Positions 5,677-40,273 of a stretch of DNA of 40,273 nt are shown one piece after another; positions within the stretch are counted from its first letter, which is position 1, and the number at the start of each line of letters is the position of its first letter. The stretch covers positions 64,001-104,273 of the IMG/VR virus record IMGVR_UViG_3300023371_001771; one strand, 5' to 3'. This stretch comes from a virus. Lineage: Duplodnaviria; Heunggongvirae; Uroviricota; Caudoviricetes. Made by a program: the position numbers and the translations under genes. Under the pieces are notes generated by a model. It saw nothing but the letters and a program-made list of their open reading frames with translations, was not told where the DNA came from and ran no database searches.

Positions 5677-5723
5677 TGGCTCTTTTATTATATTTAAAAT
5701 TTATTTTATGGAGGTAATTGATT

Positions 5724-6356
5724 ATGGCTTTCGATATTAATAATTTCGTTATTGATAGAATCGTCCGTGGTGTTGCTCTTTCTCAGAAGGATGATTCCGT
5801 ACTATTCTCTATTAACCAGATCCAGAACGCTTCCCTAAACTGCGCTTCTGAGTCTACTGACGCTGTTGACGCTCTAGGTACTCCTATTGCTACCTTCTAT
5901 CGCGCCAAGACTGCCGAATTCTCTGCTGAGAACGCCCTGTTCGACATGAACCTAATGGCCACCCAGCTTGGTACCGAGAAGACTGTTGCTTCCGCATCTT
6001 CCAAGGTGACTGTTCCTGCTATGGAGAGCTTCACTGTTGTTGATGGTGGCAAGTATACTCTAAAGCATGCTCCTAAGGCTGCTCCTACTGAGATTTATGC
6101 TATCAATGGCGACAGCACCTTTGGCGTGAAGTACACCAAGGCAACTGCGGCTTCCGATGTTGCTTTTGCTTATACTGATGCTGATTATACTCTAACTCTA
6201 CCCACTGGCGTTGCAGTTGGTACTGAGATGTTTGTTATGTATGAGTATGAGACTGAGAATGCTGTTGAAGTTGTTAACTCTGCTAAGAACTTCCCTGTTG
6301 GCTGCAAGTTCATCATGGAAGTGCTAGGTTGTGACGTATGCGACCAAACTAACCTT
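5724..6356 (+). CDS. Major tail (tube) protein, exon 1 (211 aa)
   Basis: ATG 5724 is 9 nt after GGAGG. High-expression codons. Ends ...CDQTNL at the predicted 5' splice site; the TAA at 6357 is the start of the intron. Confidence 0.75.
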
Positions 6357-6728
6357 TAAGACTACGAATTAAATTTTCGTCTTACTTAGAGCGCAATAAT
6401 TGGAAACATTATTGTGTATGTTCTTGAATTGCTGGAAACTCCTTAGAGTCTTATTGCTACAACATAAGGATGAAATACGCCTAAGTGTGAACGCTTGAAA
6501 AATATAAGAATTGGAAAATCAGCAGCCAAGCTCCGAACAGGAGAAGGTTCGACGGTCATTCGCTGAAATGCGATTAGGAGCAAGCGCTCCGAAGTGGGAA
6601 CCACCTAAGTTTATATATAAATATGGTGAATGATATGACCTTGACTTGTATGAGAATACAAGAAATACTATTTATATTGAATGAATAGTTCTTTGTTATT
6701 GTAGCGAAATAATGAAGTAAAATAATCG
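6357..6728 (+). mobile_element. Group I intron, ORF-less, 372 nt, subgroup IA-like
   Basis: P1: CTT|TAAG pairs with CTTAGAG (6385-6391), giving U6356.G6389. P element AATTGCTGGAAA (6427-6438); Q element AATCAGCAG (6517-6525). P7: ACGGTCA (6552-6558) with TGACCT (6636-6641). P3: GTTCTT (6420-6425) with GGGAAC (6596-6601). P7.1/P7.2 hairpins present; terminal G at 6728. Splicing restores the reading frame. Confidence 0.9.
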
Positions 6729-6890
6729 ATCTATGCATACGTAATTTTCAACAACTTCAAACTAAGCCCAGACTTCGACTGGAGCATCGCCACTGACGGT
6801 GCACATCCCTTCTCTGGTCGTGCACAGCAGGATTATTGCGATAAAGAGAAGAGACTATTCTCCATCGTTATCCCTGGCGATGAGGAATAA
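6729..6890 (+). CDS. Major tail protein, exon 2 (53 aa; missing from ORF track)
   Basis: Reads IYAYVIFNNFKLSPDFDWSIATDGAHPFSGRAQQDYCDKEKRLFSIVIPGDEE*, in frame with exon 1 after splicing, with the same codon style (CTA, TTC, AAC). Joined product is 264 aa. Confidence 0.85.
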   Translation: MYAYVIFNNFKLSPDFDWSIATDGAHPFSGRAQQDYCDKEKRLFSIVIPGDEE

Positions 6891-6905
6891 TTTGAATTAT
6901 AACAC

Positions 6906-6934
6906 TTGACAATACAAAATTAATGTGTTATAAT
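6906..6934 (+). promoter_or_regulatory. Consensus sigma-A/sigma-70 promoter with extended -10
   Basis: TTGACA (6906-6911), 17-nt spacer ending TGT, TATAAT (6929-6934). Confidence 0.85.
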
Positions 6935-6936
6935 GT

Positions 6937-7051
6937 ATACAAGATAGAGGAAAACTGATCATTTTTCTTGATAAGAGGTGGGGCCTCTCACCCACCTCTT
7001 CTTGTATTATTTAATAATGAGAGAGTGTTAACTAGAGAGGTAGTAATTATG
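6937..7051 (+). promoter_or_regulatory. Structured 5' leader of the HNH gene
   Basis: Closing stem ATACAAGA/TCTTGTAT encloses a GAAAA-CTGATCA-TTTTTC hairpin and a 10-bp AAGAGGTGGG/CCCACCTCTT hairpin. The loop of the latter is complementary to the SD. Confidence 0.55.
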
Positions 7052-8116
7052 AGGTTTACAAAATCATTTTATGATTGGTGCGTTGAAAACAGTCGAATAG
7101 ATTTAAATGATAGATTTGACGAAGAAAAGAATGGTTGTGCGTCAAAAGACATTTCTTGTAAGAGCAATAAAAAGATGTGGTTCAAATGTCCTCGCGATTT
7201 ACATGAAAGTGAGCAGCATTATATGTATGCTGTTACTTTGGATAAAAAAGCAAAAATAATTTGCAGTAAGTGTAATAGTATTGCTCAAGTGGTAATTGAT
7301 AAATTTGGGGAACAATACTTGCGAAATCATTGGCATAAGTCTAATATAATGAACCCATGGGATATTGCTAATGGTCATTCAAGATTAAAGATTCTTATTC
7401 AATGCACAAACAAAGACTATCATGTTTATGAGCAAACGCCTCAATCGTTTGGCAGGGGAATTGGATGTCCATATTGTAATGGAAAAAAAGTACATCCAAA
7501 TGATAGTTTGGCAGTGTTATATCCAGATATTGTAAATAGATGGTCAGATAAAAATGACAAAAGTCCATACGAGTATACTGTACAGTCAAACAAAAAAGTT
7601 TGGTTAAAGTGTCCAGAAGGAAAGCATGATGATTACTTGCAAGCACTCAATGCAGCGTATAAATATCAATATGGATGTTATGAGTGTTACAAAGATGCGC
7701 TTAGTGAAAACAAAAAAGGTGAAAATAATTATTTTTGGAAAGGCGGCATCAATGGCGAGAATGATACTCTAAGACACCGTCGAGAATATAAAGAATGGCG
7801 CACATCTGTTTATGAACGTGATGATTACACATGTCAATGTTGCGGTATTCGTGGTGGCAAATTAAACGCACACCATATTAATCAATTTTCTGACCATCCA
7901 GAGTTAAGATATAATGCTAATAATGGAATCACTTTATGTGTCAAATGCCACGATTCTTCTGAGAGTGGTTCGTTCCATAACATTTATGGAACGCACAACA
8001 CAACTTCTTCTCAGCTTAGAGAATATATTATTAACAAATCTGGAAAAGATATTTTTCAAACTAACCCCAATTTACTATATGATTTCAACAACACAAAATT
8101 AACGTGCGCTTCATAG
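7049..8116 (+). CDS. Free-standing HNH homing endonuclease with N-terminal zinc-ribbon repeats, 355 aa
   Basis: ATG 7049 follows GAGAGG. Zinc-ribbon-type units (KKMWFKC, GCPYC, KKVWLKC) precede RDDYTCQCCG..LNAHH..NGITLCVKCH, an HNH core. Codon style differs from flanking genes. Confidence 0.88.
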   Translation: MRFTKSFYDWCVENSRIDLNDRFDEEKNGCASKDISCKSNKKMWFKCPRDLHESEQHYMYAVTLDKKAKIICSKCNSIAQVVIDKFGEQYLRNHWHKSNIMNPWDIANGHSRLKILIQCTNKDYHVYEQTPQSFGRGIGCPYCNGKKVHPNDSLAVLYPDIVNRWSDKNDKSPYEYTVQSNKKVWLKCPEGKHDDYLQALNAAYKYQYGCYECYKDALSENKKGENNYFWKGGINGENDTLRHRREYKEWRTSVYERDDYTCQCCGIRGGKLNAHHINQFSDHPELRYNANNGITLCVKCHDSSESGSFHNIYGTHNTTSSQLREYIINKSGKDIFQTNPNLLYDFNNTKLTCAS

Positions 8117-8152: not shown

Positions 8153-8491
8153 ATGGCAAGGCGTGATAGAAAATGCTATCTATGTAGCACTTCATATAAA
8201 TATTGTCCCACATGCAGTGATGATAAAAATAAACCCTCCTGGATGGCCGAATTCCACAGCGAAAACTGCAAAAACATTTTTCAAATTTGCACAAACTTTA
8301 ACCTAAATCTTCAGTCCAAATCTGAGGCCAAAGCTGCGCTAGAGCAGTGTGACCTCTCCAATAAAGCAAATTTCAAGTCTTTTGTACAGACTGACCTAGA
8401 AAATATTTTTAAAGAAGAACCCAAGGCCAAGCGTTTTAAGCGCGAGGAGCCAGAAGTAATACATGAAGTAGTTGATCAAGAAAATGAATAA
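8153..8491 (+). CDS. Small putative Zn-binding phage protein, 112 aa
   Basis: CYLC-x5-CPTC...HSENC pattern; SD AGGAG. Confidence 0.6.
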   Translation: MARRDRKCYLCSTSYKYCPTCSDDKNKPSWMAEFHSENCKNIFQICTNFNLNLQSKSEAKAALEQCDLSNKANFKSFVQTDLENIFKEEPKAKRFKREEPEVIHEVVDQENE

Positions 8492-34798: not shown

Positions 34799-37588
34799 AT
34801 GATGGGAATTTCAATTTTAGAAGCATTACGTCGATCTGTTCGTTCTTTATATGTTAAGATTCCTACTGAGCTTAGTGTATCTGGTAACAAGCTGTTCTTG
34901 TCGCATAATGGCACACTATTAGACGAGGGTATTGAATATAATCCTGGCGGCGGTACTGGTGGTGGCAGCGCAGGATATGTCACATTAAAAAATTTATTAT
35001 ATTCATCAAGTATTACAGCTGCGCATGGCAGCACCGTAGAGCTAAAATTCTCATATGCAACTACAGAGGAAACAGATGACGGTAGTGCGAGTATTTATTT
35101 GGATGATGTTTTACAAATGACAACCTCAATTAAAAGAGGCGAAAATTCAATTGATATTACAAAATATTTAAGAAGCGGAACTAATAATATCAAGCTAACA
35201 TGCTCAGATCCCTATGGCAACGAAAGATCTCTTAAATATACTGTTAGCGTTATATCTCTATCTCTTACAACCAGTTTTAGTGACGCAAAACCGTATACTG
35301 GTGATTATTTTGAAATTCCATATATTTTAACAGGCGATGGAGAAAAAATAATGCATTTTGAGTTTGACGGAGAGGACATTACTGAAACAGTATCTTCGTC
35401 TGGCACAAACTCAAAAAAGACAATTTATTTTGAAACAAGAGGGCATGGAACGTACACATTAAAAATGTACGCGGAAATGGAGCTCTCTGGTCAAACTGTT
35501 ACAAGCGACGTTTATTATTTTGATATTATGCGCGTAATGGGTACGACGCCTTTGATTAGTTCAGTTTGTGACATTGTTAGCGCGAAACAGTACGAAACAG
35601 TTGGTATTCCATTTGCTGTTTATCATGCGACAGATGCTGCGCCCGTTGTTGACCTTATTATTAGTAAAGACGGTGTAGTTCATTCTCAAAAAACAATGAC
35701 TGCGAATCGTGGAGAGCGAGTTATTTGGCATGCAAGAACAACAATAGTTGGTAATGTTGATTTTACTATTTCATATGATGGCGTAAGCAAAACTCATACT
35801 ATTGCTATTACAGAAAGCGATATTAATGTGTCTGTAAGACAAAATGATATGGCATTTGAGTTGAGAGCCGCTGGAAAGTCAAATAATGACACAGATAAAG
35901 ATGTGTGGGTTAGTAGCATTGGAGATGTATCTGTAGATTTTGAAAATGTTGGCTGGAATGTTCAGCAAAAAACATTTATTGTAACAGGCGCTGATTCTGG
36001 TTCAGAAATAAAGAAAAAATATGCAATTGGCACTGGATGGGCTACCGATGACAACGGTGATACTGCACTGAGATTGTCAGGAGATGCGAGAGCTACAATC
36101 AACTTTAAGCCATTTGCTGAAGACTGGACTACGTCAAAAACAATTGAGATGGAATTTGCAATTCGCGATGTTAATAACCGTGACGCAGTTGCGATTTCTT
36201 GTATGAATAATAATGTTGGTTTTAAGATTACTGCGGACACGGCTTCTTTGATTCGAAATAATGTTCCTATTGTAGAAGCGAAGTATGTAGATGATGAAAA
36301 AATTCATTTGGCGTTTGTAGTTGAAAAGCAGGTTATGAACGATCATACTGTTAGACTGGTTACATCTTATTTGAATGGTGTGCTGTCTAGCGCGGCTACG
36401 TTTGCTGAGAGTGATTCTATATTTCAAAATCCTGCCGTTAATATATCTGTCGGGTCTTCTGACTGTTCTCTTGACTTATACATGATGCGCTTTTATGATG
36501 TTGCTCTTACTAGTCATGAGTTGAGAGACAATTATATTGCGGATAGCATGGATGCAGATCTATTGGCAGATAATGATGTTTATGTTAATGGTGCAATTGA
36601 ATATAGTAAGCTAGAAAACAAGATTCCAGTTATGAGAATTACTGGCGAACTTCCTTCTAAAAAGGCGGATTCAAATAAGAAAAAGGGCGGCAGAGATTAT
36701 CCTGTTGATGTAATTTATACAAATAAAAGCCCAATTCCAAGTATTCAAGAGAATAATGTGTTAATCCATGTACAAGGCACGAGCTCCGAAGGATATATCA
36801 GAAAAAACTGGGACCTTGATTTTGAAAATGAATACCAACACATGGATGGACAGTTGCCAACCGACTATTTTACTATGAAAGCTGACTATGCAGAGGCTAC
36901 AGGCACGCACAATACCGGCAATGCAAACTATGTGCATACTTTTTATACTGCAGATAAGTTTAGTGATGATGCGCCTTTTGTCATTGATCCACGCGCAAGG
37001 TCGACGATAGCTGGATTTCCATGTGTAATTTTCCATCGCAAAACAGAAAGTGAACCATATACCTTTGCTGGAAAATATAATTTTAACTTTTCAAAAGATT
37101 CTGAAAATGTATTTGGGTTCACAGCTACTCGTGAAGATGGCACTCCAATTTACCCAAAAATTCAGTCATGGGAATTTTGTGAAAACAAATATCTTGCATG
37201 TAGGTTTAGACAAGACCCAGATGCTTCAGATATTACAGAAGATAATTGGAAAGAATGGTTCGATGACAGATATCTTTACGATGGCGGTGACCTAGAAGAC
37301 TTTAAAATTATGTATCGCTGGGTTTATTCTACCTGCCAGGACAATGCAACAGGAGAAAATCTTGCCGATGCTTATGTGGATGTTGACGGTGTAACTCATA
37401 CTAAAGATACAAAAGAATATAGGTTGGCAAAATTTAAGACAGAGTTTAAAGAACACTTTGATTTAGATTTTAGTCTTGTTTATTATTTGTATACTTTTGT
37501 AATGTTGATGTGTGACCAGAGAGCAAAAAATATGTTCTTGACTTCATGGGATGGAATCATATGGCATCCGTGGCTATATGACAACGAT
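34799..37588 (+). CDS. Giant virion protein, exon 1 (930 aa): Ig-like, ConA/LamG-like and CotH-like kinase domains
   Basis: GGGTGGGSAG linker; lectin-like region; VQGTSS (36773), FTMKADYAE, DQRAKN (37514), WLYDND ending at 37588. The last 22 codons of the track ORF are intron sequence. Confidence 0.75.
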
Positions 37589-38607
37589 AAAAATTTTTAT
37601 GTCGTTGTAAAACCTTTTCTAATATACGGCGAAAATCATGAGAATGATAACGCCTAGGAAAATCATAAATAAGTTTTCGATATTTATTACTAATGATAAA
37701 GAGGTGTAATTAATTTTATGCCAAGAGTTAATGTGCTTGAAAAATATATCTATTTAATTGGGCAAAAAATCAATAAATGGACCGTTTTAGAATTAAAGCG
37801 TGATAGAAGAAATTGCGACGCTATATGCATGTGTGAATGTGGGAATATAAAACCCGTCAATGTATACAATCTTATTAACAATAAAACTCAAGATTGTGGA
37901 TGTGGCAGAAAAGCAATGCTTAGAGAGGCAAGAACTAAAAATTTAGTTGGACAAAGGTTTGGAAAACTTGTTGCTGTAGAATTGTTGGAAGAGAGCAATA
38001 AATTTAATCGCAGGCTGTATAGATGTAAGTGCGACTGCGGCAATGAAATCATTGTTCCAAGCAGTTGTTTGACCACAAATCATACTTCTTCGTGCGGATG
38101 TATTCTATCATATTACAACATGTATATTGACATTTTATTGGATAAACTTAATGTTAAGCATAGGCCAGAATATACAATAACTATTGATGGACATAAATTT
38201 AGATATGATTTTTATTTATGTGATTATAATTTAATTATTGAATATGATGGCGAACAACATTATATGCCAGTTAATTTTGGTGACAATGATCCAATTAAAA
38301 TGGAAGAAAATTTAAAAAGGGTTCAAGAACATGATCGTTTAAAAAATAAATATTGTGAAGAAAATAACATAAGCCTTTTAAGAATCCCGTATTGGGAAAA
38401 ATATAATATCGATAAACTTATTCACGATTGCCTACAACGACTGAACGAAAAGGATCTTGCTAAAACAGCTTAAGCAAGATATGTAACAGTCTGAACTGCA
38501 ACTATAATCTAAAAATGAAATTGCAGAGGGAAGGTCGGCGGTAACCAGACCGTCTTGGAAGAACCTTCCCCGCTTGTAGAAATACAAGTCATAAAAGTAA
38601 CAGAGTG
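37589..38607 (+). mobile_element. Group I intron, 1019 nt, carrying a homing endonuclease
   Basis: P1: ACAACGAT| pairs with GTCGTTGT (37601-37608), giving U37588.G37601. P4: GGCG/CGCC. P3: CCTTTTC (37613-37619) with GAAAAGG (38447-38453). P7: ACGACTG (38437-38443) with CAGTCT (38487-38492). P8: ATCTTGCT/AGCAAGAT. P9 hairpins present; terminal G at 38607. Confidence 0.92.
37718..38473 (+). CDS. Intron-encoded endonuclease (Vsr/DUF559-like) with two CxCxCG...SCGC zinc-type repeats, 251 aa
   Basis: Two GQ(K/R)(I/F)..(W/L)...CxC(E/D)CGN...(D/S)CGC units, then RYDFY...IIEYDGEQH...D..K..YC..N.I.LLRIPY. Confidence 0.8.
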   Translation: MPRVNVLEKYIYLIGQKINKWTVLELKRDRRNCDAICMCECGNIKPVNVYNLINNKTQDCGCGRKAMLREARTKNLVGQRFGKLVAVELLEESNKFNRRLYRCKCDCGNEIIVPSSCLTTNHTSSCGCILSYYNMYIDILLDKLNVKHRPEYTITIDGHKFRYDFYLCDYNLIIEYDGEQHYMPVNFGDNDPIKMEENLKRVQEHDRLKNKYCEENNISLLRIPYWEKYNIDKLIHDCLQRLNEKDLAKTA

Positions 38608-40273
38608 ACATGTTTAGGCATTAATAATGAAGGCTATCTTCGTTACGATTATTACCATGAAGATTTAGGACAAAACGATGCTGTTGGCGCAACCAACGTG
38701 TATAACGGATATGATTCCGTGCTATGGAATAACTTTGCAGAAGCATTTAAAGATGATATTCAAAAAACATATAGCTCGTGGAGAAGTGGATATTCTCCGC
38801 TATTAAGTTACAATAATGTTATGAAATATTTTATAACAGATCAGTCTGATAAATGGTGTATATCTATTTACAATGAAGACGCAGAATACAAGTATCTATC
38901 AATGTACAGGAATGGCGACGACTCTTCTTTCTTGTATCAAGTTAAAGGCACAGGCGAAGAACACTTAAAGTATTTTATAAAAAATCGTTTGATGTATTGC
39001 GACTCAAAGTGGCAAGCAGGCGATTTTATTAATAAGGATACAAATACTATTTTATTGCGCCTAAACTCCCCTGACGGCATTGAGGATGATGCAATTAAAC
39101 CAGATATGACGATTAAGTACAAAACATTCTCTAATATGTATACTGGTGTGCGTTATGGTACTAACGGCATATTGTCGTCTATATACACAGACAGAGGCAA
39201 ACTAGTAGAACATAAAATGCCAGATGGTGAAGACCCAAATAACCTTGATACATATATTTTTGGTGCCAACGAAATTTCTGAGCTTGAAGATATGTCGTTA
39301 TTGTATGCAAACTTAATTAATATTAGTGCAGCAAGCAAATTAACAAAGCTAGTAGTTGGCAATAGTCATCCAAATTATAAAAACGATGTTTTAAAAAGCC
39401 TGTCATTTTCTAATAATAGACTGTTGAGAGAAGTAAATGTATGCAATTGTACTGGACTGACAATGACGCTTGACTTCTCGCTATGTCCAGATATTCAATA
39501 TATTTACGCTACTGGTAGCAAGATTTCAGGTGTACAATTGCCAGATTCAGGTTTCTTAAAAGTCATTCATCTACCTGAAACGGTTAGTAACCTTACATTT
39601 GTAAATCAGCATCACATAGAAGAATTTATTTGCGAAGGATATGGCAATGTTACTACGATCAAGATAGAAAACTCCAATAACATTCCATTGCAAGATATTT
39701 TACTTGGTTGTGATTCTTCTGTGTTGGCATCCGTATCTGTAAAAAATATTAATTGGAATGTTAGCTCTGAGGAAAATCTACAGATAATTGTTGACAAACT
39801 AATAGCATGCAATGGATCGGTTGTTGAAGGTGCAGTTTATTTGCCAAGTGGCGTAACTGTATCGGATGATCTAAAAGTTACAATTCATCAGAACTTTCCA
39901 AACTTAAATGTTATTGATGATAATCCAGTATTCTACATTGACTATTTTAATTTTGATAATACAATTTGGGATACTGAAATGGTAAGTGCAGGCGAAGATG
40001 CAATTGGTCCACAGAAAGGTGATCCAGATGATATTGTGCAAGAAGCATTTGGATTAAGACACTTGTTTGTACAATGGAAAGCATTGCCTGTTAATGTAAA
40101 TAAAAATCATCAGATTGATGCAATATGGCAAACTCAATATTGGGTTAAATATTATGATAGCGACATATTGCTGTATGATTATTGGGCAGATCAAGGTAGC
40201 GAAGCAAAAGATCCAGTGTTAGATGGACCTATACCAGCACCAGAAAAACCTGGCAATGATGAGTTGCGATATT
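38608..40273 (+). CDS. Giant virion protein, exon 2 (>555 aa, runs off window; missing from ORF track)
   Basis: Hand-translated with no stop to the window end: TCLGINNEGYLRYDYYHED..., LRR-like segment (LTKLVVG..LKSLSFSNNRLLREVNVCNC), then repeat-like C-terminal units. Splicing gives YDND|TCLG. Confidence 0.88.

Follow-up and report, generated by a model that had tools for sequence, protein, structure and literature searches.

The split tail-tube gene

In the window (the whole 40,273-nt stretch of viral DNA that was analysed), the tail-tube open reading frame at 5718/5724..6359 (+) ended in ...GCDVCDQTNL, followed by TAA at 6357–6359. Removal of the 372 nt between 6357 and 6728 joined CTT|ATC in frame and gave a spliced product of 264 aa, to which 6729–6890, read in the frame of the 6356/6729 join, contributed IYAYVIFNNFKLSPDFDWSIATDGAHPFSGRAQQDYCDKEKRLFSIVIPGDEE* (53 aa, IYAY...IPGDEE). 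The predicted spliced junction was ...AACCTT|ATCTATGCA, corresponding to AAC CUU + AUC UAU in the RNA and TNL|IYAY in the protein. The features of the locus are collected in Table 1.

A search with the exon 1 protein retrieved 1927 relatives. The intron-less homologues (P0044, P0117, P0007 and others) did not end at CDQTNL; they continued without interruption through ...CDQTNL-IYAYVIFNNFKLSPDFDWS...FSIVIPGDEE. The 264-aa spliced product was collinear with them, and full-length relatives measured 262–269 aa. Since the full-length relatives read through CDQTNL-IYAY, the proposed junction TNL|IYAY is exact. The sequence-only reading of this DNA had placed the intron at 6357–6728, with the in-frame CTT|ATC join and the 53-aa extension, and had named an alignment with intron-less homologues as a check; the alignment agreed with it to the base. 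The G+C content was 0.44–0.53 in exon 1, 0.31–0.42 in the insert and again 0.46 in exon 2.

The same reading had called the gene a tail-tube gene, and two lines of evidence from the homologues bear this out. Their stored Pfam label was PF27173 YomU_Tube, with YomW, YomV and YonB-type genes as neighbours. An AF2 model of P0007, an intron-less homologue with 90% identity (pLDDT 77), matched SPR/SPbeta-type tail-tube proteins over its whole length (8ygm_A, E 7e-12; 8xkn_B, E 5e-11; TM 0.67–0.73). Membership of the window's gene in the YomU/SPbeta-type tail-tube family is supported by this label and this modelled fold. The exon 1 product matched the virion structural protein family phrog_2729 at profile positions 4–191 of 252 only. 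A PDB sequence search with the tube protein returned noise only, and megablast and tblastn searches of a phage GenBank collection gave no match.

The fold search with P0007 also returned structures in which the defence protein DSR2 is bound to the tail-tube protein of SPR (8z18, 8yln, 8ygc). The intron-carrying tube family may, from these model matches, be a defence trigger, and it is a speculative thought that allele turnover at the tube locus might bear on escape from host defence.

Table 1. Coordinates of the features at the tail-tube locus, in positions of the window.
Feature	Position	Strand	Remarks
Exon 1, tail-tube gene	5724..6356	+	211 codons; ATG 5724; GGAGG 5709-5713 upstream; last base U6356
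ORF-less group I intron	6357..6728	+	372 nt; opens with in-frame TAA 6357-6359, ends with G6728; RF00028 match
P1 helix	6354..6391	+	CUU|uaag 6354-6360 with guide cuuaGAG 6385-6391; U6356.G6389 wobble at the 5' splice site
Small hairpin in P1 loop	6363-6381	+	folds
P2 hairpin	6393..6415	+	MFE and RNAalifold; invariant in five copies
P3	6420-6425 with 6596-6601	+	Rfam alignment, manual pair table; encloses P4, P5s, P6, P7 5' strand, P7.1, P7.2
P4	6430-35/6519-24	+	Rfam alignment, pair table
P5/P5a/P5b	6440-6515	+	pair table; compensatory changes in P5, P5b
P6	6525-6548	+	pair table; compensatory changes
P7	GGUCA 6554-6558 with UGACC 6636-6640	+	pseudoknot with P3
P7.1	6560-6573	+	compensatory changes
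P7.2	6577-6590	+	compensatory changes
P8, J8/7	P8 6602-6628, within 6602..6640	+	Rfam alignment, pair table; compensatory changes in P8
P9, P9.1, P9.2	6645-6662, 6666-6690, 6691-6717	+	MFE, RNAalifold, pair table
Exon 2	6729..6890	+	53 codons 6729-6887, then TAA 6888-6890; no Met codon, no own start
Promoter, perfect TTGACA-17-TATAAT with TG extension	6906-6934	+	predicted; 16 nt after tube stop
Terminator-like hairpin, 10 bp, GC-rich, T-rich tail	6973-7000	+	between tube gene and HNH gene
Free-standing HNH endonuclease gene	7049..8116	+	treble-clef zinc fingers and HNH; Pfam DUF4379 1.8e-15, HNH 4.5e-5; PHROG HNH families

Group I structure of the insert

The Rfam model RF00028 (Intron_gpI) matched 6371–6662 over its whole length (1–253) with 42.4 bits, at E values of 2e-9 in a 701-nt region and 7e-11 in the whole 104-kb record. 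The curated gathering cut-off of this model is 50 bits, and because the window copy scored below it, a run over the whole window in gathering mode returned nothing and the tube-gene match appeared in E-value mode only. In the whole record, the tube-gene intron was the sole match, and 37,400–38,800 of the window gave none at E <= 1. A complete group I core had been claimed for this insert; the claim holds as regards coverage, since the model is matched end to end, but the score falls short of the curated level. Among copies at the same site, that of L191 (89% identical) reached 55.0 bits, above the cut-off, and that of L188 reached 33.5 bits.

Five distinct same-site copies (window, L005, L191, L196, and L188; 78–90% identical) were aligned. 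The single-sequence MFE fold and RNAalifold on the five copies agreed on P1 with its U.G pair, P2, P4, P5/P5a/P5b, P6, P7.1, P7.2, P8, P9, P9.1, and P9.2. P1 with U6356.G6389 was found independently by both and was invariant in the five copies. Compensatory double changes occurred in 11 of 105 pairs (in P5, P5b, P6, P7.1, P7.2, and P8), and a U.G pair of P3 was replaced by C-G among the copies. P7 was GGUCA/UGACC in the window vs. GACUA/UAGUC in the L001 intron, and P5a of L188 was replaced by another, perfectly complementary helix. The P3–P8 core with its P3/P7 pseudoknot was thus kept by covariation. All same-site copies ended in ...AUCG with the terminal G (omega G; G6728 in the window), and all had U at position -1.

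No ORF longer than 40 aa was present inside the intron. The position of P7.1 and P7.2 between P7 and P3' points to subgroup IA. A search for P10 pairing with exon 2 gave no convincing candidate; RNAalifold proposed a pairing of 6416–6421 with 6733–6738 in exon 2, which was invariant and overlapped P3 and was not counted.

Evidence for splicing

Synonymous vs. non-synonymous codon differences in exon 2 of intron carriers numbered 13:0 between the window and L196 and 22:1 between L188 and L191, which indicates that exon 2 is under purifying selection in these carriers. Since the changes are almost exclusively synonymous and exon 2 lacks a start codon, it must be translated within the tube gene, and its translation as part of that gene requires removal of the intron. 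A single tube gene was found in the window's record and in each of two complete relatives. From the pattern of variation in carrier exon 2 and the single tube gene per genome searched we infer splicing, and the insert is very probably a functional, spliced group I intron.

In the AF2 model of the intron-less homologue P0007, the junction lay inside the strand 207–223, and exon 2 added further strands. That tail assembly depends on splicing of the intron is a sound inference, because there is one tube gene per genome searched, a long beta strand spans the junction and purifying selection acts on exon 2 in carriers.

Two other origins of the split were weighed. If the insert were a decayed remnant that no longer splices, the gene would be a pseudogene or would yield the 211-aa fragment only. 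The Rfam score under the gathering cut-off and the state of the record, an incomplete 104-kb fragment (63% complete), would suit such decay, which is nevertheless very improbable given the helices kept by compensatory changes among five copies, the strong purifying selection on carrier exon 2, the L191 copy above the cut-off, and the presence of one tube gene only, also in complete relatives with split genes. It is more improbable still, to the point of being negligible, that the split is an assembly chimera or a sequencing artefact: the window does come from a metagenome assembly, but an identical intron-plus contig was recovered in an independent run (X1, record 7, 6293–6934, no differences), and at least seven distinct same-site alleles came from several samples and assemblers.

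In the RNA runs, the spliced junction of this phage was found unambiguously in none; there was one clear RNA run, with a small share of words. The only contig of an RNA run that joined exon 1 to exon 2 belonged to a relative (IYAYLVFPN variant). Its DNA may be intron-less, so it says nothing on splicing. Gaps in the cover of contig-based runs likewise do not count as evidence.

For a spliced intron of this structure, catalysis and its timing would be as follows. The intron would fold on the late transcript, where the guide cuuaGAG would pair with CUU|uaag and U6356.G6389 would mark the 5' splice site. A guanosine cofactor would attack at this site, and the freed exon 1 would then attack after the terminal G6728, so that the exons would be ligated as ...AAC CUU + AUC UAU... 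and the 264-aa tube protein restored. On unspliced RNA, the TAA that opens the intron would stop ribosomes and give a 211-aa fragment without some strands of the fold. Some phage group I introns splice in infected cells only and not in vitro (PMC11878797), and therefore the 'self' in self-splicing is not assured for the window's intron.

Presence and absence of the intron at site 211

Among the 120 closest cluster representatives, 51 reached the normal C-terminus and 69 ended early, at nine different positions within the last ~60 codons; seven stopped at TNL like the window. In run X1, the intron-plus allele, equal to the window over 6293–6934, coexisted with an intron-less allele in which 6355 was joined to 6732. 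The flanks common to all seven distinct carriers were CAAACTAACCTT|...|AT(C/T)TA(T/C)GCATACGT. Loci L007, L008, and L061 were intron-less with exactly these flanks, and their exons were 97% identical to those of the carrier L005; they therefore represent empty sites or precise losses. In most other intron-less alleles, Leu211 was encoded by CTA, TTA, CTC, or CTG, and these alleles thus lack the U needed at -1. The distribution of the intron was patchy relative to exon relatedness (L005 a carrier; L007, L008, and L061 empty).

Coding differences between the window and L003 rose only a little near the junction (9 per 45 nt, vs. 1–7 elsewhere), in genomes that were only 78% identical upstream, and they say nothing on co-conversion. 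The exact 14-mer GGTTCGACGGTCAT had at least 116 matches in viral contigs, which were mostly unrelated.

Because about half of the close alleles are intron-less in the 3' region and both alleles occur in one sample, the intron is dispensable and resembles a selfish element more than a regulator. Splicing efficiency could also be imagined as a regulatory checkpoint, as it was in the sequence-only reading; tube production would then be tuned or timed by how much 211-aa read-off product is made relative to the spliced 264-aa protein. Such control would make use of the in-frame stop with which the intron opens (TAA), since it yields a defined truncated product, in a gene whose strong codon bias and G+C are typical of high expression. 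It is unlikely, however, when 51 of 120 close cluster representatives are intron-less in the 3' region and others have introns at other sites, when intron-less alleles coexist in the same sample, and when early in-frame stops are common in phage group I introns anyway (PMC3984707).

As a selfish element, the intron would be gained and lost among alleles. The route of its spread would most likely be DNA-level homing or recombination in co-infections and, occasionally, reverse splicing into new sites; the free-standing HNH gene downstream possibly helps this spread.

The HNH gene next to the tube gene

The HNH gene starts 158 nt downstream of the tube gene and has its own predicted promoter. The tube gene and a conserved gene at 8153–8491 flank it, and it is an optional insertion whose presence varies among loci. 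The same layout of promoter and hairpin was seen at L001:5210–5310, where both hairpin arms were changed. Judged by their sequence and position, the promoter and the hairpin may control expression of the endonuclease.

The gene is a candidate helper of intron mobility, to judge from its sequence and surroundings. Under collaborative homing, the HNH protein would cut intron-less tube genes near codons 209–211, and a genome with the intron would be protected because its target is interrupted; the intron and the HNH gene would then be copied jointly during repair. Such a route of mobility, which we regard as quite possible, is compatible with a spliced, selfish intron. It would account for an intron without an ORF beside an endonuclease gene that has its own promoter. 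Of the intron-bearing loci, 24 of 29 had an endonuclease-sized insertion after the tube gene, as against 13 of 35 loci with no intron (Fisher p 3e-4 without correction for relatedness, in a small sample of related loci). The four closest relatives of the HNH gene (70–74%: L188, L191/L194, L200) all had a neighbouring intron at site 211 or 208.67, and relatives at 58–64% lay beside sites 251 or 253.33 or beside none. However, the same intron in L005 was followed by a different zinc-finger ORF, and HNH orthologues at 58% also followed intron-less genes (L019, L023). The sample was small, its loci were related, and cleavage is putative.

Many insertion sites in related tube genes

A survey of 69 IMG/VR loci and several other contigs, from phages of ~150–170 kb in animal gut or faeces, placed group I introns in the tube gene at about 16 positions. 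In residues of the spliced window protein, the sites were 11, 52, 54.67, ~63, 74, 204, 208.67, 211, 214.33, 220.67, 229.3–229.7, 233.33, 246.33, 251, and 253.33. Rfam matches above the cut-off numbered 29, in 19 loci. The largest number was found at L069:1746–5602, which belongs to a complete genome of 158,164 bp (G002). Its tube gene held six introns (1246, 320, 367, 308, 416, and 369 nt), and the exons of 33, 155, 58, 411, 76, 51, and 47 nt formed an 831-nt coding sequence with a continuous ORF of 276 aa. RF00028 signal was present in all six introns and above the cut-off in four of them, and the genome as a whole had 13 RF00028 matches.

At five of the ~16 sites, the last exon base was G, C, or A instead of U when the junction was placed so that the protein was restored and the intron ended in G (L053/L070 at 52; L200 at 208.67; L024/L036/L069 at 229.3–229.7; L009/L030 at 233.33; L199 at 251). 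Forcing U at -1 at these sites put the intron end one base off G. The P1 pairs at these splice sites may be unusual, or the protein-guided calling of the boundaries may be at fault.

An intron of 1.1–1.25 kb followed codon 11 (L188:2191–2997; L064:2407–3500; L069:1779–3024). It contained a LAGLIDADG-type ORF, 268 aa long in L188, and as a result the start that gene callers assign to the tube gene is an internal one. The site-211 intron of L188 (3625–4042) and the site-246.33 intron of L010 (4233–4593) shared a stretch of 172 nt at 92% identity, and thus introns at different sites exchange segments. Relatives of the window's intron (72–84% over 110–260 nt) were also observed in genes 2–3.4 kb upstream of the tube gene in related phages (L021:49–286, L029:187–313, L036–L047:29–139, L007/L011:273–407, L060/L008:474–608, and L019:1361–1464), so the same intron clan colonised other genes of the structural module.

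A second site 29 nt downstream

The closest relative of the window's intron overall was not another site-211 copy but the L198 intron at site 220.67 (90.1% identity). L201 and L203 had introns at this same site, which is 29 nt downstream of site 211. The site-220.67 intron was inserted at AACUU|UAAG and had the same guide, cuuaGAG, as the window's. Its target reproduced all seven bases of the P1 5' strand (CUU|uaag), and the 3' flanks of the two sites were unrelated. The predicted integration bonds of the two targets were AAUAACUU|UAAGCUAAG and ACUAACCUU|AUCUAUGC.

The introns at sites 211 and 220.67 formed one clade with 100/100 support that was internally unresolved. L188 seemed basal in it, but this copy is a mosaic with the site-246 intron, and for that reason the direction of the move cannot be read from the clade.

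Reverse-splicing transposition is an established concept that has had circumstantial support only so far (PMC3984707, PMC1299323). The two targets resemble each other in the 5' flank only, as reverse splicing predicts and an endonuclease-driven move does not, and this comes from one event. We tentatively suggest that the window's intron lineage might have moved within the gene by reverse splicing, a reading of the target sequences that is possible although rather doubtful. If true, the tube gene would be a natural system for direct tests of RNA-guided transposition of a group I intron into a protein-coding gene.

Comparison with known systems

Phage group I introns lie mostly in genes of DNA or nucleotide metabolism (PMC11878797), as the sequence-only reading had stated. 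The orf142 gene of phage Twort contains three group I introns (PMC22036) and was identified as the tube gene in PMC11878797. Group I introns in a tail-tube gene are therefore already known, and the window is not the first case. The two cases share ORF-less introns of the self-splicing type in a late tail-tube gene and several introns in one small gene, the latter here in the window's relatives. They differ in that the Twort protein is a myovirus tube and the present one is of the SPbeta/YomU type, with no detectable sequence relation between them, and in that the present phages are uncultured gut phages of ~150–170 kb whose splicing is deduced from sequence. Here the sites are also more numerous (about 16), and a single gene can carry more introns (up to six).

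The introns of T4 td, nrdB, and nrdD (sunY) belong to subgroup IA2. Like them, the window's intron has P7.1/P7.2 ahead of P3', its 5' splice site is marked by a U.G pair, and an in-frame stop comes early in it (see also PMC3984707). Unlike them, it lies in a structural gene and not in genes of nucleotide metabolism. The td and sunY introns carry their own endonuclease ORFs, whereas the window's intron is ORF-less.

Collaborative (trans) homing is known from the cyanophage psbA system and the T7-like DNA polymerase system (reviewed in PMC3984707). The present locus resembles these in its ORF-less intron, in the free-standing endonuclease gene adjoining the interrupted gene and in the co-occurrence of endonuclease subtype and intron site; the link here differs in being statistical, with exceptions.

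Introns are dense in crAss-like phages and in Jug phages, the latter with 18.5 group I introns per genome (PMC12880540). These are likewise uncultured gut phages with essential genes split by many group I introns and with stand-alone HNH genes, and one relative of the window phage had a comparable load of 13 RF00028 matches in 158 kb. In contrast to them, the window's lineage has genomes of 150–170 kb with an SPbeta-like tail module, and PMC12880540 describes no such clustering of sites within a single structural gene of 0.8 kb.

For rDNA, related group I introns at two sites served as circumstantial evidence for reverse splicing (PMC1299323; PMC3984707). The present pair is similar in that close introns (90% identical) occupy two sites and target similarity extends no further than the short 5' flank paired with the guide. 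It differs in that the host is a protein-coding phage gene, the sites are 29 nt apart and the whole 7-nt P1 5' strand is reproduced. What is new here and worth following up is the site density in one small structural gene, together with the 211/220.67 pair.

Implications for the phage group

Gene callers end the window's tube protein at 211 aa. Since 69 of the 120 closest representatives are truncated, structural proteins of an abundant group of gut phages are systematically mis-called. After Twort orf142, this tube gene provides another, independent example of colonisation by group I introns, and its locus combines unusually dense insertion sites with an adjacent variable slot for free-standing endonucleases. 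The tube family is thus a convenient natural system for collaborative homing, for intron gain and loss, and possibly for reverse-splicing transposition.
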